Notes under the pieces: generated by a model
Databases searched by the model: none
What the model was told of the DNA's origin: nothing
The model's input: the letters and a program-made list of their open reading frames with translations, nothing else
Shown here: positions 2,852 through 14,303 of the stretch, one piece after another
Layout: every line of letters begins with the position of its first letter
Numbering within the stretch: the first letter of the stretch is position 1
Virus genome (UHGV): UHGV-0132370
Origin: a virus
Reading direction: 5' to 3' (one strand)
Length of the DNA stretch: 15,932 bases
Program-made: the position numbers and the translations under genes

Positions 2852-2869
2852 TGTATCAGCACTGATACA
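2852..2869 (+). promoter_or_regulatory. TGT-N12-ACA dyad (tgtatcagcactgataca), candidate Ogr/Delta-type late activator site of the promoter preceding V
   Basis: Perfect 8+8 inverted repeat tgtatcag/ctgataca in the only sizeable intergenic gap (2848..2915) between S and V, where P2 carries its late promoter for the V operon. Confidence 0.6.
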
Positions 2870-2915: not shown

Positions 2916-3494
2916 ATGAACGCACAATTAACCGAAATCATGCGCCTTATCACCAACCTGATCCGCACTGGGGTAGTCACCGAAGTGGACAGGACAAACT
3001 GGCTTTGCCGGGTGAAAACGGGCGACCTTGAAACCAACTGGATCAGCTGGCTGACGCTGCGTGCCGGGAATGCCCGGACATGGTGGCGACCATCGGAAGG
3101 TGAGCAGGTGGTGCTGCTGAGTATGGGCGGTAATCTGGAAACAGCTTTTGCGCTGCCCGCCATCTATTCGAATCAGTTCGCACCACCGTCGACGTCGGCG
3201 GACGCCTGCGTGACAGAACATCCTGACGGTGGCTGGTTTGAATACGAACCTGCCACCGGGCGCTGGTATGTCAGGGGCATCAAATCCATGGTCATTGAGG
3301 CTGCCGATAACATCACCCTGAAAACCAGTGAGTTTGTGCTGGAGGCTGAGTGCACGCGTATTAACAGCGAAGTGGTGGTCAATGGTGGCGTTACTCAGGG
3401 CGGCGGAGCGATGAGTTCTAACGGGATCGTGGTTGATGCACATCAGCATACTGGCGTCCTGAAAGGCGGCGATACAACCGGAGGCCCGGTATGA
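2916..3494 (+). CDS. V: Baseplate central spike protein V (P2 gpV-like)
   Basis: 192-aa ORF at the gpV position; Gly-rich C-terminal region (VNGGVTQGGGAMSSNGIVVDAHQHTGVLKGGDTTGGPV) typical of spike tips; an alternative start at ATG 2940 is possible. Confidence 0.8.
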   Translation: MNAQLTEIMRLITNLIRTGVVTEVDRTNWLCRVKTGDLETNWISWLTLRAGNARTWWRPSEGEQVVLLSMGGNLETAFALPAIYSNQFAPPSTSADACVTEHPDGGWFEYEPATGRWYVRGIKSMVIEAADNITLKTSEFVLEAECTRINSEVVVNGGVTQGGGAMSSNGIVVDAHQHTGVLKGGDTTGGPV

Positions 3495-3850: not shown

Positions 3851-4745
3851 CCTTTCGCAGTTGCCTGCGCCGCAGATTGTGGATGTGCCGGACTTTGAGA
3901 CGCTGCTTGCCGAACGCAAGGCCGAATTTGTTGCGCTTCATCCGAAAGATGAGCAGGAAGCAGTGATCCGCACGCTGGAACTGGAATCTGAACCCGTCAC
4001 CAAATTGCTTCAGGAGAACGCTTACCGTGAGTTGCTTCTGCGCCAGCGCATTAACGAAGCCGCGCATGCTGTGATGGTGGCTTACGCGATGGGCGGCGAT
4101 CTTGACCAGCTCGCTGCCAACTACAACGTGAAACGCCTGACGGTGACGCCTGCTGATAATGACGCTGTGCCACCCGTTGCGGCTGTGATGGAAAGCGATG
4201 AAGCGTTACGCCTGCGTGTGCCTGCGGCTTTTGAAGGGCTTTCGGTTGCGGGGCCAACCGCAGCTTATGAATTTCATGCCCGAAGCGCCGACGGTCGGGT
4301 GGCGGATGCCAGTGCAACCAGCCCGGCACCTGCAGAGGTGGTGCTTACGGTCCTAAGCCGTGAAGGCGACGGAACAGCAGAAAAAGACCTGCTGGACGTG
4401 GTGGAAAAAGCTCTGAACAGTGAGAACGTTCGCCCGGTGGCTGACCGTCTGACGGTTCGCAGCGCAGAAATCATCCCGTATCGCGTGGAAGCCACCATTT
4501 TTCTCTATCCGGGGCCGGAAGCAGAGCCGGTAATGGCAGCGGCAAAAGCCAGCCTGCAGAAATACATCGCCAGTCAGACGCGGCTTGGTAGGGATATTCG
4601 CCGTAGCGCCATCTTTGCCGCCCTGCATGTTGAGGGTGTACAGCGTGTGGAGCTGGCTTCGCCGCTGGCGGATGTGGTTTTGAACAAAACGCAGGCGGCA
4701 TCATGTACGGAGTGGAGCGTGACCAACGGGGGAACGGATGAATAG
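3837..4745 (+). CDS. J: Baseplate assembly protein J
   Basis: ATG at 3837 preceded by CAGGAG (3824-3829), 302 aa like P2 gpJ; the track ORF starting at 3798 includes an unlikely upstream extension. Confidence 0.85.
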   Translation: MAVIDLSQLPAPQIVDVPDFETLLAERKAEFVALHPKDEQEAVIRTLELESEPVTKLLQENAYRELLLRQRINEAAHAVMVAYAMGGDLDQLAANYNVKRLTVTPADNDAVPPVAAVMESDEALRLRVPAAFEGLSVAGPTAAYEFHARSADGRVADASATSPAPAEVVLTVLSREGDGTAEKDLLDVVEKALNSENVRPVADRLTVRSAEIIPYRVEATIFLYPGPEAEPVMAAAKASLQKYIASQTRLGRDIRRSAIFAALHVEGVQRVELASPLADVVLNKTQAASCTEWSVTNGGTDE

Positions 4746-5343
4746 TCTGCTGCCATCGGGGTCAACTTCACTGGAGCGCCGACTGGCGCAAACGTGCAGC
4801 GGGATTTCTGATCTGCAGGTGCCGCTGCGTGACTTGTGGAATCCGGCTACCTGCCCGGTCAGCTTCCTGCCTTATCTCGCCTGGGCGTTCTCTGTGGATC
4901 GCTGGGACGAAGGCTGGACAGAAAGCGTCAAGCGCCAGGTGGTGAAGGATGCTTTTTATATTCATCAGCATAAAGGGACCACCAGTGCCGTGCGGCGGGT
5001 GGTGGAGCCGTTCGGCTTTCTGATCCGCATTATTGAGTGGTGGCAAACCGGAGAGGCACCGGGCACGTTTCGCCTGGATATCGGCGTGCAGGACCAGGGC
5101 ATCACTGAAGATACCTATCTGGAACTTGAGCGACTGATAAGCGATGCCAAACCATGTAGCCGCCACATGATCGGCATGTCCATCAATCTGCAGACCAGCG
5201 GCCCGTATTGGGTGGGAGCCGCCAGCTATCTTGGCGAAGAAATCACGATCTATCCGTATATCAACGAAACGATTATTTCCGGTGGCACCGCGCATGAAGG
5301 CGGGGCGGTCCATGTTATTGACACAATGAGAGTGAATCCATGA
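4738..5343 (+). CDS. I: Baseplate/tail protein I
   Basis: 201-aa ORF overlapping J stop and H start; position as P2 gpI. Confidence 0.8.
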   Translation: MNSLLPSGSTSLERRLAQTCSGISDLQVPLRDLWNPATCPVSFLPYLAWAFSVDRWDEGWTESVKRQVVKDAFYIHQHKGTTSAVRRVVEPFGFLIRIIEWWQTGEAPGTFRLDIGVQDQGITEDTYLELERLISDAKPCSRHMIGMSINLQTSGPYWVGAASYLGEEITIYPYINETIISGGTAHEGGAVHVIDTMRVNP

Positions 5344-6746
5344 GCACAAAATTTTATACCCTGCTGACGGATATTGGCGCGGCGAAACTTGCCAGCGCCG
5401 CCGCGCTCGGTGTGCCGCTAAAAATTACCCATATGGCGGTGGGCGATGGCGGCGGAGTATTGCCAACGCCGGACGCAAAGCAGACGGCACTGGTAAATGA
5501 GAAACGCCGGGCTGCGCTGAATATGCTCTATATCGACCCGCAGAACAGCAGCCAGATTATTGCTGAACAGGTGATCCCTGAAAACGAGGGCGGTTGGTGG
5601 ATACGTGAAGTGGGCCTGTTTGATGAGTCCGGGGCATTGATTGCCGTGGGCAACTGCCCGGAAAGCTATAAGCCGCAACTGGCTGAAGGCAGCGGGCGTA
5701 CCCAGACCGTGCGTATGGTGTTGATTACCAGCAGCACGGACAATATCACCCTGAAAATCGACCCTGCCGTAGTGCTGGCAACCCGCAAGTATGTGGATGA
5801 TAAGGTACTGGAGCTGAAGGTGTACGCGGATGATCAGATGGCAAAACATCTTGCCGCACCGGACCCGCATTCACAGTATGCACAGAAAGAAAGTCCTACG
5901 TTTACCGGGACACCCAAAGCGCCAACGCCAGCGGCGGGGAATAACACCACGCAGGTTGCGACCACCGCGTTTGTTCAGGAGGCACTGACGGCTCTTATTA
6001 ATGGTGCGCCAGCCACGCTGGACACGCTGAAAGAAATAGCCGTAGCCATTAACAATGATCCGAAATTCAGTACCACCATTAACAATGCGCTGGCACTGAA
6101 AGCGCCGCTGTCGAGTCCGGCACTCACCGGAACGCCAACAGCCCCCACGGCGGCGCAGTCGGTCAACAATACACAGATTGCCACCACGGCTTTTGTGAAA
6201 TCGGCGATTGCGGCAATGGTGGGTTCTGCACCTGCGGCACTGGATACACTGAACGAACTGGCGGCGGCGCTGGGGAATGACCCGAACTTTGCCACGACAA
6301 TGCTTAATGCACTGGCAGGTAAACAACCGCTGGACAATACGCTGACTAATTTGAGTGGAAAGGATGTTGCTGGTCTTCTCGCATACCTTGGTTTGGGAGA
6401 AGCGGCGAAAAGGGATGTGGGCACAGGAGATAATCAGATACCGGATATGGGAGCATTCGCTTCTGGTTCGGGATGGTTCAGGCTACCAGGTGGATATATT
6501 GTTCAGTTTGGCACTTTTTCAGGAAACACGACCCGCTTTATCAGTGGACACTTCCCTATACCATTCCCTAATCAGCCGATGGTTTCAGTCAGTGTTATGT
6601 CTGATGCCGTTCAGTCAGACCCGTCGATTCCTGCCCCGCAGGTTTTGTCTGTAAATTTTGAACGTATCAGTAATTCAGCGTGGCGTGTGGCAACCAGTGA
6701 TATCTCACAGCAATACAGATTCAGTTATATTTCGATAGGACGGTAG
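5340..6746 (+). CDS. H: Tail fibre protein H (constant N-terminal part 5340..6389 plus currently expressed variable C-terminal domain 6390..6746)
   Basis: 468-aa ORF with N-terminus MSTKFYTLLTDIGAAKLA..., internal tandem ~73-aa tail-fibre repeats, and a compositionally distinct (AT-richer) 3' end that begins at the left crossover site. Confidence 0.9.
   Translation: MSTKFYTLLTDIGAAKLASAAALGVPLKITHMAVGDGGGVLPTPDAKQTALVNEKRRAALNMLYIDPQNSSQIIAEQVIPENEGGWWIREVGLFDESGALIAVGNCPESYKPQLAEGSGRTQTVRMVLITSSTDNITLKIDPAVVLATRKYVDDKVLELKVYADDQMAKHLAAPDPHSQYAQKESPTFTGTPKAPTPAAGNNTTQVATTAFVQEALTALINGAPATLDTLKEIAVAINNDPKFSTTINNALALKAPLSSPALTGTPTAPTAAQSVNNTQIATTAFVKSAIAAMVGSAPAALDTLNELAAALGNDPNFATTMLNALAGKQPLDNTLTNLSGKDVAGLLAYLGLGEAAKRDVGTGDNQIPDMGAFASGSGWFRLPGGYIVQFGTFSGNTTRFISGHFPIPFPNQPMVSVSVMSDAVQSDPSIPAPQVLSVNFERISNSAWRVATSDISQQYRFSYISIGR
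6376..6401. repeat. Left crossover-like site (26 bp, ttctcgcatacc-tt-ggtttgggagaa) inside H; 6388..6401 is a 14-bp perfect inverted repeat of 8255..8268
   Basis: 12-2-12 dyad resembling gix/hix/cix invertase crossover sites; the reverse complement of 6388..6401 (ttctcccaaaccaa) is identical to 8255..8268. Confidence 0.75.
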
Positions 6747-6748
6747 AA

Positions 6749-7189
6749 ATGCAGAAATATATTTTCAGTGCCGATAAAAATGCGTTTTTCCCTGTGGAGC
6801 TTAAAATCGCTTATCAGGAATCCGGCGAATGGCCCGATGATGGAATCGAAATTGACGACACTGTTGCTGCCGAATTTATGAAGGAAGCACCAGAAGGAAA
6901 ATACAGAGGTGTCATCGACGGAATGCCTGCATGGATTGATATTCCACCGCCAACTCATGAGGAACAAATTGCCGCAGCCGAACTGAAAAAGCAGCAATTG
7001 ATTAATCAGGTCAACGAATACATAAACAGTAAGCAATGGCCTGGTAAAGCGGCGATTGGTCGCCTGAAAGGTGAGGAACTGGTGCAATATAATTTGTGGC
7101 TGGATTATCTGGACGCACTGGAACTGGTCGATACTTCCGGTGCGCCAGATATTGAATGGCCTACGCCTCCGGCAGTTCAGGCCAGATGA
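6749..7189 (+). CDS. G: Tail fibre assembly chaperone (P2 gpG-like / Tfa), partner of the current H C-terminus
   Basis: 146-aa ORF 3 bp after H stop; C-terminal motif LVDTSGAPDIEWPTPPA shared with the convergent - strand paralogue. Confidence 0.8.
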   Translation: MQKYIFSADKNAFFPVELKIAYQESGEWPDDGIEIDDTVAAEFMKEAPEGKYRGVIDGMPAWIDIPPPTHEEQIAAAELKKQQLINQVNEYINSKQWPGKAAIGRLKGEELVQYNLWLDYLDALELVDTSGAPDIEWPTPPAVQAR

Positions 7190-7763
7190 CATCAGGCGCG
7201 GTGCTGGTATCTGTTGCCGTCACCGCGTCAATATAATCCAGCACAGCGTTAAGTCGGGTTGTTTCTGCCTGCGTCAGCTTCCGTCCGGCCTGTAATTTCA
7301 GTTGAATCAGACTGATGGAAGACATTGCTGCATCAATCAGTGACTGGCGCTGTGCTTCTGCCGCTTCTACTGCGGCGCTATGCTGTGCCTCAGTATCCGT
7401 CACCCATTTCTCACCATCCCATTTATCATATGGCGTTAACGGGGCGATAGTGGTTGTATTTTCAGGGTAATCACCCAGAGATGTGATTTCTTTCGATTCT
7501 CCTGTTTCGGTGCTATAGATGATTTCACCGCGATGGTCTGGCACATATTCCCATGAGTTAAAATCTGCAGAGCGGCAGATTGCATAACCGGCTTTATGTG
7601 TACCTGGTGCATCTAAGCATGAATACGCCGGAATACCGACACCCACAGCAAGGTATTCGGTTGATGTGGAAAGATATTCCTTCGTCTCAGCATCAAAATT
7701 ATAAACGGTAATGTTTCCTGCCTTTGTAGTAATGAGTTCGCTATTTAATACGGCTTTATTCAT
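7161..7763 (-). CDS. Alternative tail fibre assembly chaperone (tfa'), partner of the silent fibre cassette
   Basis: 200-aa ORF on - strand, convergent with G (3' ends overlap 7161..7189); C-terminus DTSTAPDVIWPELPEA parallels the G C-terminus; start ATG overlaps the stop of the upstream - strand cassette (TGATG). Confidence 0.75.
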   Translation of the reverse strand: MNKAVLNSELITTKAGNITVYNFDAETKEYLSTSTEYLAVGVGIPAYSCLDAPGTHKAGYAICRSADFNSWEYVPDHRGEIIYSTETGESKEITSLGDYPENTTTIAPLTPYDKWDGEKWVTDTEAQHSAAVEAAEAQRQSLIDAAMSSISLIQLKLQAGRKLTQAETTRLNAVLDYIDAVTATDTSTAPDVIWPELPEA

Positions 7764-8268
7764 CAGGCTGCCCTCACGATATAGTTAAATGCGACGTTGC
7801 GCGGGTAACCTTCTTGGTTTCCAAAGGTGGGGCTCTGCGTAGTCACAGAAGTAGCAGAGTTGTTGTTTGTCCCGCCGCTGCCGCCAAGTGATCGGATAAC
7901 GCCGCCGTCGCCTGCTGTCGCTGCTGGCCCTAACTCCCTACCGTTCTGCGATGGTACAGTTGTACTAGTTGGGATGCTGCCGCTAGCCGATGTCCAAATT
8001 TCCAAGCCGTGGACGTGCGATCCTGGAGACCATCCCTGGCTAGACCCTATCGAACGCCCTGGATCAACCCCTCGCCCATCATCCCATCCACGAATAAATT
8101 CACCGCGCAGGTCTGGCAGCAAAAGACCGGGGTAAGCGAGAGCAAGCTTCGGATATTGGGAGGCGATAAATGGCGCACCGTTGCATTTCAACCAGCCTGT
8201 TGGCGGAGTTGCTAAAGGCCACGGAACAGGGACACCAACAGGTAATGCAGAGCCTTCTCCCAAACCAA
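7763..8268 (-). CDS. Alternative tail-fibre C-terminal cassette (H'), 167 codons, lacks own promoter and start; in frame with H constant part after inversion
   Basis: - strand frame reads GLGEGSALPVGVPVPWPLATPPTGWLKCNGAPF... starting inside the right crossover site; the GLGE codons (ggtttgggagaa) are the same as the GLGE codons of H at the left site. Confidence 0.7.
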
Positions 8269-8280
8269 CGTTTAAGAAAA
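8255..8280. repeat. Right crossover-like site (26 bp, ttctcccaaacc-aa-cgtttaagaaaa), inverted relative to the left site
   Basis: 12-2-12 organisation; 8255..8268 is the exact reverse complement of 6388..6401; lies about 55 bp upstream of the invertase start. Confidence 0.75.
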
Positions 8281-8335
8281 TGCAGAGGTAACAGCTAACT
8301 GGCATCATCTCCGGTTTTTATTCAGGGGGATGATC

Positions 8336-8902
8336 ATGCTTATTGGCTATGTACGCGTGTCAACAAATGACCAGAACACCGATTTGCAACGTAATGCACT
8401 GAACTGCGCGGGATGTGAGCGGATTTTTGAGGACAAAATCAGTGGCACTAAGTCCGACAGACCGGGGCTGAAAAAACTACTCAGGACACTATCGGCAGGA
8501 GACACGCTGGTTGTCTGGAAGCTGGACAGGTTGGGGCGCAGTATGCGGCATCTTGTTACGCTGATAGAAGAGTTGCGCCAGCGTGGTGTGAATTTCAGAA
8601 GCCTGACTGACAGTATTGATACCAGTACCCCAATGGGCCGTTTCTTTTTTCATGTCATGGGTGCCCTAGCTGAAATGGAACGCGAACTGATAGTTGAACG
8701 TACCAGGGCGGGGCTGGCTGCAGCTCGTGATAAAGGCAGAGTAGGTGGACGCCGTCCTAAGTTGACCACCGAACAGTGGGCACAGATTGGACGCTTACTC
8801 GAGGCCGGAGAATCAAGACAGCGTATTGCACTGATTTTTGATGTGGGTGTTTCCACAATTTATAGAAAATTTCCGGCAAATAAGAGTAATGAATCCCCCT
8901 GA
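8336..8902 (+). CDS. Serine DNA invertase, Gin/Hin/Cin/Pin family
   Basis: N-terminus MLIGYVRVSTNDQNTDLQRNAL... with the catalytic serine in YVRVSTNDQ, plus VVWKLDRLGRSMRHL and SLTDSIDTSTPMGRFFFHVMGALAEMERELIVERT, and a C-terminal HTH-like tail; ATG 8336 has better spacing to GGGGGA (8325-8330) than the in-frame ATG 8330. Confidence 0.9.
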   Translation: MLIGYVRVSTNDQNTDLQRNALNCAGCERIFEDKISGTKSDRPGLKKLLRTLSAGDTLVVWKLDRLGRSMRHLVTLIEELRQRGVNFRSLTDSIDTSTPMGRFFFHVMGALAEMERELIVERTRAGLAAARDKGRVGGRRPKLTTEQWAQIGRLLEAGESRQRIALIFDVGVSTIYRKFPANKSNESP

Positions 8903-8950
8903 ATCAGCATTATGTTGATTATCCCTGCAAGCAGACAAATACCGTTATTT

Positions 8951-8968
8951 TGTGTGAATAACGACACA
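8951..8968 (+). promoter_or_regulatory. TGT-N12-ACA dyad (tgtgtgaataacgacaca), candidate late activator site of the promoter preceding FI
   Basis: Dyad about 85 bp upstream of the FI ATG in the 142-bp gap after the invertase; spacing leaves roughly a 30-nt leader containing CAGGAGG (9029-9035). Confidence 0.55.
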
Positions 8969-9044
8969 ACTGCGCTTAGCTGTTTGTCAGGCACAATCAC
9001 TTCAACATAGGGCGAAGCCTAATCCAATCAGGAGGTTCGCCACT

Positions 9045-10217
9045 ATGGCTCAGGATTACCACCACGGGGTGCGCGTTGTTGAAGTCAACGAAGGCACCCG
9101 ATCTATTACCACGGTGAGCACCGCCATCGTGGGTATGGTCTGCACGGGCGATGATGCCGATGCAAAAATGTTTCCTCTTAATAAACCCGTGCTGATCACT
9201 GATGTGCTGACTGCCAGCGGTAAAGCGGGTGAGTCCGGTACTCTGGCCCGTTCGCTGGATGCCATCGCTGACCAGGCAAAACCCGTGACCATTGTTGTGC
9301 GTGTGCCGCAGGGTGAAACGGAAGACGAAACCACGACCAATATCATCGGCGCAGTGACTGCTGAAGGTAAAAAAACAGGTATGAAAGCCCTGTTATCTGC
9401 CCAGTCACAGCTCGGCGTTAAACCGCGCATTCTCGGCGTGCCAGGCCACGACACCAAGGCGGTAGCTACTGAGTTGCTGAGCGTGGCGCAAAGCCTGCGT
9501 GGATTTGCTTACCTGTCAGCGTATGGCTGCAAGACAGTGCAGGAGGCGATCACTTACCGCGAAAACTTCAGCCAGCGCGAAGGGATGCTGATCTGGCCTG
9601 ACTTTACTGGCTGGGACACGGTGCTGAATGCCGAAGCAACGGCATATGCCACCGCCCGTGCGCTTGGTCTGCGCGCCAAAATTGACGAGCAGACCGGATG
9701 GCACAAAAGCCTGTCCAATGTGGGCGTGAACGGTGTCACCGGAATTTCTGCAGATGTGTTCTGGGATCTGCAGGACCCGGCAACCGATGCAGGTCTGCTG
9801 AACCAGAACGACGTCACCACGCTTGTGCGTAAAGACGGTTTCCGCTTCTGGGGGTCCCGCTGCCTGAGTGATGACCCGCTCTTTGCCTTCGAAAACTACA
9901 CCCGCACGGCGCAGGTGCTGACGGACACGATGGCAGAAGCACACATGTGGGCGGTGGATAAACCGCTTAACCCGTCGCTGGCCCGCGACATTATCGAAGG
10001 TATCCGCGCCAAAATGCGCAGACTGGTCAGTCAGGGCTATCTCATTGGTGGTGATTGCTGGCTGGATGAGTCGGTGAACGACAAAGACACGCTGAAAGCC
10101 GGAAAACTCACCATCGACTACGACTACACGCCAGTGCCGCCACTTGAAAACCTGATGCTGCGTCAGCGCATCACCGATCAGTACCTGGTGAATTTCGCCA
10201 GCCAGGTCAGCGCGTAA
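9045..10217 (+). CDS. FI: Contractile tail sheath protein FI
   Basis: 390-aa ORF beginning [19 protein letters not shown]..., closely matching my recollection of P2 FI throughout (e.g. [31 protein letters not shown]); strong RBS. Confidence 0.92.
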
Positions 10218-10796: not shown

Positions 10797-11099
10797 ATGA
10801 GCGATAAGCAGACTGAAAAGACCATTCAACTGGATACCCCCATCAAGCGCGGTAAAACAGAAATCACCGAAATTGTGCTGCGTAAACCGCAGTCCGGTGC
10901 GCTGCGCGGTACACGCCTGCAGGCCATTATGGATATGGATGTAAACGCGATGATGACCGTGATCCCCCGCATCTCCAGTCCGGCACTGACTGCACAGGAA
11001 ATTGCAGAGATGGACCCGGCAGATCTCACTGCCATGTCGGTTGAGGTTGTCACTTTTTTGTTGAAGAAGTCGGTGCTTGCCGGTTTACCGACAGCCTGA
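10797..11099 (+). CDS. E: Tail assembly chaperone E (0-frame product)
   Basis: 100-aa ORF at the gpE position between FII and T; contains the slippery heptamer near its 3' end. Confidence 0.85.
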   Translation: MSDKQTEKTIQLDTPIKRGKTEITEIVLRKPQSGALRGTRLQAIMDMDVNAMMTVIPRISSPALTAQEIAEMDPADLTAMSVEVVTFLLKKSVLAGLPTA

Positions 11100-11233
11100 C
11101 GGTTGACGATCTGGTGGCAGATATCGCCACCATTTTTCACTGGCCGCCATCCGTTACTGACGTTATGCCGCTGACCGAAGTGCTGGAATGGCGGTATAAA
11201 GCGATTCAGAGAAGCGGGGCCAACGATGAGTGA
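10797..11233 (+). CDS. E': Tail assembly chaperone E+E' (-1 programmed frameshift product; frame changes at 11054..11060, stop at 11231..11233)
   Basis: Heptamer T_TTT_TTG (11054..11060) in the E frame; the -1 frame is open from there to TGA at 11231-11233, overlapping the T start at 11226. Confidence 0.7.
11054..11060 (+). other. Slippery heptamer T_TTT_TTG for -1 ribosomal frameshift (E to E')
   Basis: X_XXY_YYZ pattern in the zero frame of E (codons act-ttt-ttg), with the -1 frame open downstream. Confidence 0.7.
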
Positions 11234-14200
11234 TAACAACCTGCGTCTGCAGGTCATTCTTAATGCGGTTGACAAGCTCACCCGCCCATTTCGATCTGCG
11301 CAGGCCAGTTCAAGAGAACTGGCTGCTGCTGTCAAAAAATCCCGCGATGCAATAAAGCAGCTTGATCAGGCCGGGAGCAGTCTGGACAGCTTCCGAAAGC
11401 TGCAGGCAGAAAATCAGAAATTAGGCGACAGGCTGAACTATGCCCGCCAGCGTGCAAATTTGCTCAGTCAGGAACTGGGAGCGATGGGGCCGCCTTCGCA
11501 ACGTCAGGTTGTTGCTCTGGGCCGTCAACGGCTGGCTGTTCAGCGCCTGGAAGAACGCCAGAAAAAGCTGCAGCAGCAGACGGCGCTTGTGCGTGCTGAA
11601 CTGTACCGGGCGGGAATTTCTGCGAAAGACGATGCGGGAGCAACTGCCCGTTTAGCCCGTGAAACATCACGTTATAACCAGGAACTTTCGAAACAGGAGG
11701 CGCGGCTGAAGCGACTGGGGGAAGCTCAGCGCAGGATGAATGCAGCGCGTGCCAGTTATGCCCGTTCGCTGGAGGTGCGTGATCGTATTGCAGGTGCCGG
11801 AGCCACCACCACGGCTGCAGGGCTGGCAATGGGTGCGCCAGTGATGGCGGCAGTAAAAAGCTATACCAGCATGGAAGATGCCATGAAAGGTGTGGCAAAG
11901 CAGGTCAATGGTCTGCGTGACGATAATGGCAACCGCACTGCACGTTTTTATGAAATGCAGGATGCCATCAAGGCTGCCAGCGAACAGTTGCCGATGGAAA
12001 ACGGTGCGGTGGACTTCGCTGCACTGGTTGAAGGTGGTGCGCGCATGAACGTCGCAAACCCTGACGACAGCTGGGAAGATCAGAAACGTGACCTGCTGGC
12101 CTTCGCCAGTACGGCAGCAAAGGCGGCAACAGCCTTTGAGCTGCCAGCGGATGAACTGTCAGAAAGTCTGGGGAAAATCGCCCAGCTCTACAAAATCCCC
12201 ACCCGCAATATTGAACAGCTCGGTGATGCGCTGAACTATCTGGATGATAACGCCATGTCGAAAGGGGCAGACATCATTGATGTGATGCAACGTCTGGGCG
12301 GTGTGGCTGACCGTCTGGATTATCGTAAAGCGGCGGCGCTGGGTTCCACCTTCCTGACACTGGGCGCTGCGCCAGAGGTTGCAGCCAGTGCAGCAAACGC
12401 GATGGTGCGTGAATTGTCCATTGCCACCATGCAAAGCAAGAGTTTCTTTGAAGGGATGAATCTGCTGAAACTCAATCCTGAAGTGATTGAAAAGCAGATG
12501 ACGAAGGATGCGATGGGAACCATCCAGCGCGTGCTGGAGAAGGTAAACGCGCTGCCGCAGGACAAGCGCCTGTCTGCCATGACTATGTTGTTTGGTAAAG
12601 AGTTTGGCGATGACGCGGCGAAACTGGCAAACAACCTGCCGGAACTGCAGCGTCAGTTAAAACTGACAGCGGGCAATGATGCGCTCGGCTCCATGCAGAA
12701 AGAATCCGACATTAACAAGGATTCACTTTCTGCGCAGTGGTTGCTGGTCAAAACCGGAGCGCAGAACACCTTCAGCAGCCTGGGCGAAACGCTGCGCCAG
12801 CCGCTGATGGATATTCTGTACACGGTGAAAAGCGTCACGGGGGCGTTGCGTCGCTGGGTGGAAGCTAACCCGGAACTGACAGGCACACTGATGAAAGCAT
12901 CGGCTGTTGTGGCTGCGGTTACCGTCGGCCTCGGCACCTTAGCGGTGGCGCTGGCTGCAGTGCTGGGGCCGCTGGCAGTGATCCGTCTGGGATTCTCTGT
13001 GTTGGGTATCAAAACGTTATCTTCCGTTACGGCAGCAGTAACTCGAACCAGCAGCGCGTTGTCCTGGCTGGCTGGCGCACCACTGGCACTGCTGCGACGC
13101 GGGCTTGCTTCATCGGGCAACGCCGCAGGTTTACTTACTGCGCTGTTGTCGTCTTTGCGCCGCACGGCATCACTGACGGGAAATGTCCTGAAAACTGTAG
13201 CAGGTGCGCCAGTTGCACTTTTGCGGTCTGGATTATCCGGTTTACGTGCTGTTGCTGTGATGTTTATGAATCCTCTGGCGGTACTGCGCGGTGGACTGGC
13301 AGCCGCAGGCGCGTTGCTGCGAGTGCTTGCATCTGGTCCGCTGGCGATGCTGCGCGTTGCCCTGTATGCCATATCTGGTCTGTTAGGTGCTCTGCTTAGT
13401 CCGATAGGTCTTGTGGTTACTGCACTGGCGGGTGTGGCGCTGGTTGTCTGGAAATACTGGCAACCCATCACCGCATTTCTCGGTGGCGTGGTGGAAGGAT
13501 TCAAAGCGGCGGCAGGTCCCATCAGTGCAGCGTTTGAACCACTTAAGCCCGTGTTCCAGTGGATTGGCGACAAAGTGCAGGCGCTGTGGGGCTGGTTTAC
13601 TGATCTGCTGACGCCTGTTAAGTCGACCTCTGCCGAACTGCAGAGCGCAGCGGCAATGGGGCGACGATTCGGGGAGGCACTGGCGGAAGGGCTGAATATG
13701 GTCATGCATCCGCTGGACTCCCTGAAATCCGGCGTTTCCTGGTTGCTGGATAAACTCGGCATTGTCAGTAAAGAGGCTGCAAAGGCGAAACTGCCGGAAA
13801 GCGTGACGCGTCAGCAACCTGCGACGGTGAATGCAGACGGTAAAGTGATGATGCCATCGGGTGGTTTTCCGTCATGGGGATATGGCTTTGCGGGGATGTA
13901 TGACAGCGGCGGCTATATCCCGCGCGGGCAGTTTGGCATCGTCGGTGAAAACGGGCCGGAAATTGTCAACGGCCCGGCAAACGTGACCAGCCGGAGAAAT
14001 ACCGCTGCACTGGCTGCGGTTGTTGCCGGAATGATGGGCGTTGCTGCCGCGCCTACAGAGCTTCCATCGTTACATCCTTTGGCACTTCCCGCGAAAGGCG
14101 GCGAAGCGATGGTGAGTCGTGCAGCCACTGTGCCGCCCGTTCAACGGATTGAGGCACCGACGCAGATCATCATTCAGACGCAGCCAGGACAAAGTGCGCA

Positions 14201-14303
14201 GGATATTGCGCGGGAGGTGGCCCGCCAGCTTGATGAACGTGAACGCAGGCTGAAGGCAAAAGCTAGGAGTAACTACAGCGATCAGGGGGGATACGACGCA
14301 TGA
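11226..14303 (+). CDS. T: Tail tape measure protein T (1025 aa)
   Basis: Long ORF after E/E'; coiled-coil-prone N-terminal third, central and C-terminal Ala/Leu/Gly-rich hydrophobic repeats; position as P2 gpT. Confidence 0.9.
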   Translation: MSDNNLRLQVILNAVDKLTRPFRSAQASSRELAAAVKKSRDAIKQLDQAGSSLDSFRKLQAENQKLGDRLNYARQRANLLSQELGAMGPPSQRQVVALGRQRLAVQRLEERQKKLQQQTALVRAELYRAGISAKDDAGATARLARETSRYNQELSKQEARLKRLGEAQRRMNAARASYARSLEVRDRIAGAGATTTAAGLAMGAPVMAAVKSYTSMEDAMKGVAKQVNGLRDDNGNRTARFYEMQDAIKAASEQLPMENGAVDFAALVEGGARMNVANPDDSWEDQKRDLLAFASTAAKAATAFELPADELSESLGKIAQLYKIPTRNIEQLGDALNYLDDNAMSKGADIIDVMQRLGGVADRLDYRKAAALGSTFLTLGAAPEVAASAANAMVRELSIATMQSKSFFEGMNLLKLNPEVIEKQMTKDAMGTIQRVLEKVNALPQDKRLSAMTMLFGKEFGDDAAKLANNLPELQRQLKLTAGNDALGSMQKESDINKDSLSAQWLLVKTGAQNTFSSLGETLRQPLMDILYTVKSVTGALRRWVEANPELTGTLMKASAVVAAVTVGLGTLAVALAAVLGPLAVIRLGFSVLGIKTLSSVTAAVTRTSSALSWLAGAPLALLRRGLASSGNAAGLLTALLSSLRRTASLTGNVLKTVAGAPVALLRSGLSGLRAVAVMFMNPLAVLRGGLAAAGALLRVLASGPLAMLRVALYAISGLLGALLSPIGLVVTALAGVALVVWKYWQPITAFLGGVVEGFKAAAGPISAAFEPLKPVFQWIGDKVQALWGWFTDLLTPVKSTSAELQSAAAMGRRFGEALAEGLNMVMHPLDSLKSGVSWLLDKLGIVSKEAAKAKLPESVTRQQPATVNADGKVMMPSGGFPSWGYGFAGMYDSGGYIPRGQFGIVGENGPEIVNGPANVTSRRNTAALAAVVAGMMGVAAAPTELPSLHPLALPAKGGEAMVSRAATVPPVQRIEAPTQIIIQTQPGQSAQDIAREVARQLDERERRLKAKARSNYSDQGGYDA

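Follow-up and report, generated by a model that had tools for sequence, protein, structure and literature searches.

A probable Din-family tail-fiber switch of the e14 type in a P2-like prophage

The stretch of UHGV virus genome UHGV-0132370 analyzed here (15,932 nucleotides (nt), referred to in full as the window) carries at 6390-8266 what is very probably a Din-family (Pin/Gin/Cin/Hin-type) invertible tail-fiber segment of the e14 P-segment type, lodged in a P2-like prophage. Two alternative C-terminal ends of one tail-fiber protein lie on opposite strands of this segment, each followed by its own Tfa-type chaperone gene, and a gene for a Pin-type serine DNA invertase adjoins the segment on the right. 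At present the fiber ends in a Gp53-like tip (Sv), while a collar-type tip (Sv') and its chaperone are silent. The crossover sites, the reading frames, the homologies, a strict pairing of tips with chaperones and the existence of both orientations in nature are all observed directly.

Crossover sites, reading frames and orientation

The segment 6390-8266 lies between two 26-bp pix-like sites that stand in inverted orientation (Table 1). An earlier note on this DNA, made from the sequence alone, had singled out 6390-8268, which agrees to the base with the interval between the central dinucleotides of both sites, and the sequence features that it described all lie at the positions it gave. The inner half-sites and cores form a perfect 14-bp inverted repeat. 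Din-family sites are built of two imperfect 12-bp half-sites that flank a 2-bp core common to both sites, and the pair in the window has this structure. The 14-mer concerned, TTCTCCCAAACCAA, has exactly two copies in the window, inverted with respect to each other; none of 200 shuffles matched this inverted pair, so chance is not expected to account for it. The inner half-site and core are identical to those of e14 at 14 of 14 positions, and the right site agrees with the right pix of e14 at 25 of 26. The published e14 inverted repeats are TTGGTTTGGGAGAAGG and CCTTCTCCCAAACCAA (PMC12529663); window positions 6388-6403 agree with the published e14 repeat at 15 of 16 bases and positions 8253-8268 with CCTTCTCCCAAACCAA at 16 of 16. 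The e14 sites are inverted, in vivo and experimentally, by PinE and PinQ (PMC12529663; PMC4272514).

To the left of the crossover, the fiber is constant and related to P2 gpH (Pfam Phage_tail_fib N-terminal domain, E=6e-65), with a backbone-like composition (GC 0.554). The fiber open reading frame (ORF) at 5340-6746 ends ...GTFSGNTTRFISGHFPIPFPNQPMVSVSV..., and the minus-strand ORF at 7763-8308 includes ...PVPWPLATPPTGWLKCNGAPFIASQYPKLALAYP... Inversion of 6390-8266 in silico joins ...LLAYL in frame to GLGEGSALPVG..., producing an uninterrupted fiber that is followed by Tfa2. The fusion is in frame in both forms, with no stop codon, and yields 468 amino acids (aa) in the present one and 517 aa in the inverted one. 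For annotation, this means that ORF 7763-8308, labeled 'phage tail protein', belongs to gene H as its silent alternative C-terminus and is not a gene by itself.

The invertase shows 86% identity to PinE and 75% to Mu Gin, and is assigned to PHROG 125 (DNA invertase, 6e-101). It combines a resolvase domain, a catalytic serine (Ser9, in MLIGYVRVS) and a C-terminal helix-turn-helix, the features of a Din-family recombinase. Although the ORF opens at 8330 (MIMLIGY...), Pin, Gin and the RefSeq homologues, which are 567 nt long, start at the equivalent of the ATG at 8336. An AGGGGG stretch just 5' of the gene is also better spaced for the start at 8336.

The same segment is found in the opposite orientation in Klebsiella phage KP12 (OM835953.1). 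Compared with the window, KP12 has 97.2% identity in the left flank and 99.9% in the right, and its inverted segment is 99.6% identical. Over 6385-8271 the two differ at only seven positions, including 6387 and 8269, which are the first bases of the outer half-sites, with exchange at 6387/6388 and 8268/8269. The differences at these two positions place the exchange inside the 2-bp core, as a serine invertase would give. An exchange of the cassette only was also considered for KP12, given a 99.7% megablast match confined to 6385-8268, and was rejected because the flanks also match, at 97-99.9%, on the other strand. The KP12 record contains single-base deletions at the window equivalents of 6634 and 8068, one per fiber tip, and as a result splits the fiber into a 'tail fiber protein' and a 'hypothetical protein' and leaves the other tip unannotated. 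These deletions could be sequencing errors or a real inactivation of both tips.

Orientation was surveyed in a pool of about 85 loci, made up of 80 viral contigs with invertases 85-99% identical to the window's, the window itself and, as four references, KP12, an E. coli prophage, phage 500465-1 and e14. The 59 pooled loci with a recognizable site pair are the base for orientation and GC counts. The Gp53-like tip is expressed and the collar tip silent in 24 of the 59, and the reverse arrangement is found in 13. Both orientations are therefore present across KP12 and related loci, with the source strain itself seen in one.

Several draft IMG/VR contigs end at, within or about 25-50 nt from a crossover site, and in some of the contigs one outer half-site recurs on both sides or there are three to four sites. 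This looks like assembly breakage or chimeras from a population mixed for orientation, of which contig ends at the sites are the usual symptom; assemblies of such prophages may be of either orientation or be interrupted at a crossover site. A related invertase flanks a 3.45-kb segment with divergent sites in a 101-kb IMG/VR contig of P1-like size (L074) and a 1.1-kb segment with only one Tfa in another locus (L017), which indicates that cassette number and size vary in this invertase family.

In the proposed mechanism, the late operon V-W-J-I-H would read into the segment from the left. The 350 constant codons, presently fused between ...AYL and GLGE... to the Gp53-like tip, would be co-transcribed with the gene for Tfa1 (146 aa). 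The invertase (8336-8902) would pair the two inverted 26-bp sites, cut at the 2-bp core and rotate the ends, inverting 6390-8266. The constant part would then be fused in frame to the collar StfE-like tip in a 517-aa fiber, and the 200-aa TfaE-type chaperone would move to the co-transcribed position. Each Tfa is envisaged to bind its own tip fold through a variable N-terminal domain, while its conserved C-terminal helical domain would promote trimerization. A lysogen population could in this way release two virion types with different receptor specificity, the mark of a bet-hedging host-range switch.

Table 1. Features of the probable tail-fiber switch and its surroundings in the window (GC3, GC content at third codon positions)
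Feature	Coordinates	Strand	GC3	Description
TGT-N12-ACA dyad	2852..2869	+		pattern search; 47 nt 5' of V-like ORF 2916-3494
Tail protein I	4738-5343			Pfam
Tail-fiber ORF	5340-6746	+		468 aa; P2-type N-terminal domain by Pfam
Constant N-terminal fiber part (P2 gpH-like)	5340..6389	+	0.59	350 codons, ends ...LLAYL at crossover
Left crossover site (pix-like), 26 bp	6376..6401			core TT 6388-6389; TTCTCGCATACC-TT-GGTTTGGGAGAA
Expressed variable tip Sv	6390..6746	+	0.42	118 aa; Gp53-like / R-pyocin 'foot' receptor-binding type
Tfa1, cognate to Gp53-like tip	6749..7189	+	0.43	146 aa; Pfam Caudo_TAP
Tfa2, TfaE type, cognate to collar tip	7161..7763	-	0.43	200 aa; Pfam Caudo_TAP; silent in present orientation
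Silent alternative tip Sv'	7763..8266	-	0.49	167 aa; collar domain, variable insert with one HxH, conserved C-terminus PRNVAFNYIVRAA
Right crossover site (pix-like), 26 bp	8255..8280			core AA 8267-8268; TTCTCCCAAACC-AA-CGTTTAAGAAAA
Pin-type serine DNA invertase	8336..8902	+	0.48	Pfam Resolvase 7e-53 and HTH_7 1.5e-15
TGT-N12-ACA dyad	8951..8968	+		pattern search; AT-rich spacer before sheath gene
Tail sheath gene	9045-10217			Pfam

Two tip families and their chaperones

The expressed tip belongs to Pfam Gp53-like_C (PF21882; E=9e-8, 33.0 bits, cut-off 24.9). As a single sequence, Sv matches the PDB only at chance level (best E=0.48), and a profile of 20 Gp53-like tips was required to reach 6CXB (3e-9) and 4MTM (7e-9), along with 6CL5, 9ZD7 and 6CT8. 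6CXB, 6CL5 and 6CT8 are C-terminal domains of R1 and R2 pyocin fibers (6CXB of R1), and 9ZD7 is a short tail fiber. 4MTM is a putative tail-fiber protein, which we take to be gp53 of Acinetobacter phage AP22. Sv thus resembles the R-pyocin 'foot' and AP22 gp53 at the profile level (E 3e-9 to 1e-5) and through Gp53-like_C, but the relation is distant and ligand specificity is not transferable. Tips 98% identical to Sv occur in P2-like phages of Klebsiella, E. coli and Salmonella.

The silent tip is a member of Pfam Collar (PF07484; E=1e-12, 47.9 bits, cut-off 24), and its matches in the PDB are the short tail fiber 9CUY (1e-14), T4 gp37 (2XGF, 3e-14) and T4 gp12 (1OCY, 7e-3). With the two T4 proteins it shares the collar domain, and with gp37 an HxH motif after the collar and a C-terminal ...NIAFNYIVR(L/A)A strand. 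However, Sv' is much shorter, has a single HxH where the T4 proteins have needle repeats, and is partnered by a Caudo_TAP-family Tfa rather than by gp38/gp57A. It is 52% identical to e14 StfE and about 50% identical to some alternative tips of P1-like Punavirus phages.

Collar-family tips are almost invariant over their first ~77 and last 13 residues, with 55-110 hypervariable residues between, and most variants of this insert retain the HxH just after the collar. In the window, the insert corresponds to about 7804-8057 on the minus strand, between the invariant collar domain and an invariant PRN(I/V)AFNYIVRAA. At this place, unrelated sequence is found in an E. coli prophage whose neighboring sequence to either side is 95-97% identical. 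Among phage records, the window's insert is matched only by KP12 (97.7% identical), the next best match being 51%, while GTDB species-representative genomes offer 58% at best. This allele is the only uncommon element of the switch, and on an unlikely but conceivable reading the rare, GC-richer insert specifies a receptor that no characterized fiber targets.

A 14-codon leader that opens with ATGATG (MMPVSCYLCIFLNV) lies 5' of the silent tip, at 8267-8308 on the minus strand; e14 and nearly all related loci share it. Its residues differ non-conservatively between loci (C/R, Y/N, L/R), with no sign of peptide selection. Because of these changes, the leader is probably conserved at the DNA level, as the outer half-site and the region upstream of the invertase.

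The two tips share no detectable similarity in BLASTP (E=28), fall into different Pfam families and have different relatives among solved structures. Profile-profile comparison with hhalign, using profiles built from 20 diverse Gp53-like and 16 diverse collar relatives, gives a probability of 2.2% and aligns only 11 junction residues (GLGEAAKRxVG with GLGEGSALPVG). NCBIfam holds no model for the fiber tips or the Tfas. From the divergence of their sequences, it is plausible that the two tips recognize different receptors.

Both chaperones are members of Pfam Caudo_TAP (PF02413, cut-off 22.1), with E=9e-34 and 116.8 bits for Tfa1 and E=2e-32 and 112.9 bits for Tfa2. Each gene lies on the same strand as its own tip and directly 3' of it, starting 2 nt after the tip (Tfa1) or overlapping its stop codon by 1 nt (Tfa2). 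Tfa1 is 56% identical to e14 TfaP, and Tfa2 is 89.5% identical to e14 TfaE. The two align with each other solely over their last 80 residues, at 35% identity, a stretch that includes the motif DTSxAPD(I/V)xWP. Searches of the PDB with the single sequences of Tfa1 and Tfa2 return chance-level matches only. The tfa genes converge, and their 3' ends overlap by 29 nt (7161-7189). Within the invertible segment, their C-terminal domains form an 18-nt inverted repeat (7099-7116 / 7225-7242, 89% complementary), through which the chaperone genes could undergo homologous recombination with one another.

To assess how tips and chaperones are associated, each Tfa was paired with the fiber end immediately upstream, giving 106 pairs after removal of duplicates. 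A Tfa from a single N-domain cluster (the TfaE type, median 200 aa) follows every one of the 47 collar tips, whereas the Tfas that follow the 59 Gp53-like tips all fall into four further clusters (131-210 aa; medians 128-152 aa). This association of tip family with N-domain class (47/0 and 0/59) is without exception, and its significance (Fisher p=3e-31) is inflated by shared ancestry. By sequence clustering, the N-domain class follows the fold family to which the tip belongs and not the hypervariable receptor-binding insert, since the collar inserts vary widely yet the Tfa N-domain stays in one cluster. The strict pairing agrees with the modular model of Tfa proteins, in which a variable N-terminal domain binds the fiber and a conserved C-terminal domain serves oligomerization (North et al. 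2019, as cited in PMC9608196). Tfa1 and Tfa2 differ in the same way as this model, derived from Mu Tfa (PDB 5YVQ), with a tip-specific variable N-domain and a conserved C-domain at the sequence level. Unlike Mu Tfa, neither has a significant sequence match to any PDB chain, and binding of the tips is predicted here. The pairing of N-domain and tip fold may be useful for engineering P2-type or tailocin fibers with swapped tips.

Much of what the earlier note had said about this part of the window agrees with these results. It described two unrelated receptor-binding ends with only GLGE in common, which the comparisons of the tips bear out, and it correctly called the silent end collar-type. It also gave each tip its own Tfa-like chaperone, the two having a C-terminal motif in common and different N-termini, in keeping with the alignment over the last 80 residues and the exclusive pairing. 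The domain searches it had proposed for tips and chaperones place the tips in different families, not in one, and both chaperones in Caudo_TAP. Its comparison of the silent end with Mu/P1-type fibers fails for Mu, which was rejected as a source of the collar tip, having no BLAST match and no Collar domain; on the P1 side the likeness holds for one P1-like Punavirus only. The right match is e14 StfE, with some Punavirus tips and T4 gp37/gp12 as further relatives.

Base composition, alternative readings and genomic setting

The GC content is 0.495 in the segment and 0.556 in the rest of the window, where non-overlapping 1877-bp intervals average 0.560 (standard deviation 0.010, minimum 0.534). 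The low-GC block extends past the segment through the invertase gene (0.497) and the spacer at 8903-9044 (0.437), ending at 9044. The collar tip has a bulk GC of 0.563, because its Gly/Pro/Ala-rich composition raises GC at the first and second codon positions, and it is low only at GC3 relative to the backbone (0.62 +/- 0.06). Within the module, GC3 is highest in the insert of this tip (about 7804-8057), at 0.54. Bulk GC was accordingly rejected as a uniform signature for the collar tip, GC3 being the better measure. In 57 of the 59 loci, e14 included, GC is lower in the segment than in its flanks (0.474 +/- 0.018 vs 0.548 +/- 0.025, Wilcoxon p=3e-11). The block is thus AT-richer than its surroundings and the GC profile is not flat, as the earlier note had it. 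Its delimitation of the low-GC region as the whole of 6390-8268 is right for the segment, but too narrow on the right; for the collar tip, it applies at GC3 and not in bulk.

The same note took the lower GC as a sign that the whole cassette was acquired horizontally. In its strict form, this would mean a recent entry into the phage, in one piece and from a donor of lower GC, with the GC trough as the scar. This reading is consistent with the size of the deficit (0.495 vs 0.556 overall; 0.41-0.54 vs 0.62 at GC3) and with the wide variation of cassette content among phages with 97-99% identical invertases, the pool of about 85 loci holding 27 tip clusters. Nevertheless, we consider it unlikely. 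The trough takes in the invertase and the spacer up to 9044, and near-identical KP12 has the same backbone together with the same cassette. The insert at about 7804-8057 has been swapped in the E. coli relative, while its neighbors remain 95-97% identical; judged by such comparisons, cassette exchange occurs piecemeal and the cassette is a mosaic. The deficit itself is family-wide, being found in 57 of 59 loci including e14, and the GC dip is therefore the mark of a mobile pool of shared genes that has a base composition of its own, and not of recent acquisition here. The broader idea that tail-fiber cassettes are exchanged horizontally is supported in a general sense.

Several observations weigh against a switch that operates in the source strain as proposed, or limit what can be said of it. 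The single window shows one orientation; inversion in the source strain is inferred, and so are the receptors that either tip would bind. The association of tips with Tfas is inflated by the common ancestry of the loci. In known Din-family members, a recombinational enhancer acts in cis through two Fis sites inside the 5' part of the invertase gene. A simple scan for the Fis consensus finds single matches at 8406 and 8513, and no pair at the expected 48-bp spacing. The first 225 nt of the invertase gene have a mean column identity of 87% with pinE and gin, which is little informative in coding sequence, and dependence on Fis and an enhancer would be expected by analogy. The single orientation and the lack of an identified enhancer would also suit a segment that once inverted and is now frozen, with the collar tip and Tfa2 as a silent, decaying spare; the 1-nt deletion in each KP12 tip indicates that copies can break, or were mis-sequenced. 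Such a fossil is highly improbable, since all five ORFs in the window are intact, the full-length invertase retains Ser9 and is 86% identical to active PinE, the inner half-sites and core are perfect 14-bp inverted repeats, and a near-identical phage is found in the flipped state. A further alternative is that in the lysogen the host, and not the phage, benefits from the switch. A short ORF would run leftwards from the ATG-ATG leader at 8308 into the tip that faces it, and its product, a free tip protein, would mask surface receptors against other phages. Nearly all related loci have the leader, and in e14 its equivalent is claimed in a 2025 paper to give a functional chimeric protein, StfE2, in which the leader is joined to the StfP tip and which is reported to block T2 adsorption (PMC12529663). 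However, the leader residues vary non-conservatively, no promoter-like site reads leftwards from 8310-8400, and the element is a complete phage tail module and not a cryptic remnant, so that this alternative is exceedingly doubtful. It is also quite improbable that the module, while serving the phage, additionally works in the lysogen as a recombinase-switched receptor mask, with the tip that faces the invertase made outside the late operon. If it did, the mask produced from the leader at 8308 (minus strand) would block adsorption of unrelated phages. A scan of 6200-9100 for sigma-70 promoters and terminators gives chance-level counts, with none reading into the silent genes. The invertible, phage-serving tail-fiber segment thus remains the preferred reading.

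The 15.9 kb of the window make up the lysis and tail module of a prophage of the P2-like group (Peduoviridae), and the prophage that carries the switch is apparently intact. Its backbone matches Escherichia phage 500465-1 (genus Wadgaonvirus) and many phages derived from Klebsiella prophages at 96-97% identity. The fiber gene and the sheath gene are separated by four extra reading frames and the recombinase gene, and the position of the switch, between gene I and the sheath gene, is common to related P2-like prophages. Plus-strand ORFs 3' of the sheath gene would fit the remainder of a cluster of tail genes of the P2 type. TGT-N12-ACA is the activator motif of P2 late promoters, from which the candidate roles of the two dyads in Table 1 derive. 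The dyad at 2852..2869 is a putative P2-type activator site that would drive the V-W-J-I-H operon, including the fiber gene; the dyad at 8951..8968 is a candidate late promoter of the next operon and lies at the right end of the low-GC module. Their positions 5' of the V-like gene and the sheath gene match the operon structure of P2, with the invertase inserted between two late operons.

Farther to the right, a TTTTTTG slippery heptamer occurs at 11054-11060, near the end of the E-like ORF 10797-11099, a place that recalls the programmed E/E' frameshift in the tail chaperone of P2. The plus-strand ORF 11226-14303 (1025 aa), presumably the tape-measure gene by its position, contains a region of strong negative AT skew (to -0.32) at 13001-13600, which is overlapped by a 369-aa antisense ORF (12653-13762). 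The skew is probably a compositional quirk of ORF 11226-14303.

Relation to known invertible segments

Invertible tail-fiber segments with paired chaperones have been textbook knowledge since the Mu G, P1 C and e14 P segments. The switch in the window is an already known kind of phage device, and its cassette is present in GenBank at 99.6% identity in KP12 and has annotated counterparts in many E. coli prophages. Public records label these genes as tail fiber, tail fiber assembly protein and DNA invertase. Of 5426 complete E. coli genomes, 3070 have matches to parts of the query region, and in 19 of these one match alone covers at least 80% of it.

The Mu G segment (S/U, S'/U', gin) and the P1 C segment (cin) share both principle and layout with the window, with a constant N-terminus, two C-termini that each have a Caudo_TAP chaperone, and an adjoining Din-family invertase. 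Their components are different. Mu S consists of Gp34_trimer and Phage_fiber_2 and S' of gp37_C, with neither Collar nor Gp53-like_C, and the window tips have no BLASTP match to Mu S or S' at E<=0.01, which sets them apart from Mu-type tips. The Mu segment is about 3 kb long, and the pix-type 14-mer does not match the Mu gix sequence. One P1-like Punavirus comes closer, with a collar tip about 50% identical and a TfaE-type Tfa 88% identical to those of the window.

The P segment of e14, a cryptic prophage of E. coli K-12 (stfP-tfaP / tfaE-stfE, pinE), which PMC4272514 credits to Plasterk and van de Putte (1985) in its citations, has the gene order and strands of the window, near-identical crossover sites and the same LGLGE fusion junction. 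It also holds the same pair of Pfam families, StfP (Gp53-like_C) with TfaP, and StfE (Collar) with TfaE, adjoining pinE. However, StfP has no BLAST-level similarity to Sv, and the central insert of StfE differs from that of Sv'. Furthermore, e14 is a defective lambdoid remnant, whereas the switch in the window sits in a complete P2-like tail module.

Other P2-like prophages have invertible fiber segments as well. Inversion and phase variation of the fiber segment were demonstrated in 2014, by sequencing and polymerase chain reaction, in P2-like prophages of enteropathogenic E. coli (PMC4272514). The segments of Escherichia phage 500465-1, Cartapus and KP12 share with the window the backbone (96-99.9% identical), the position, the invertase and the sites, and differ from it only in their particular tip alleles.

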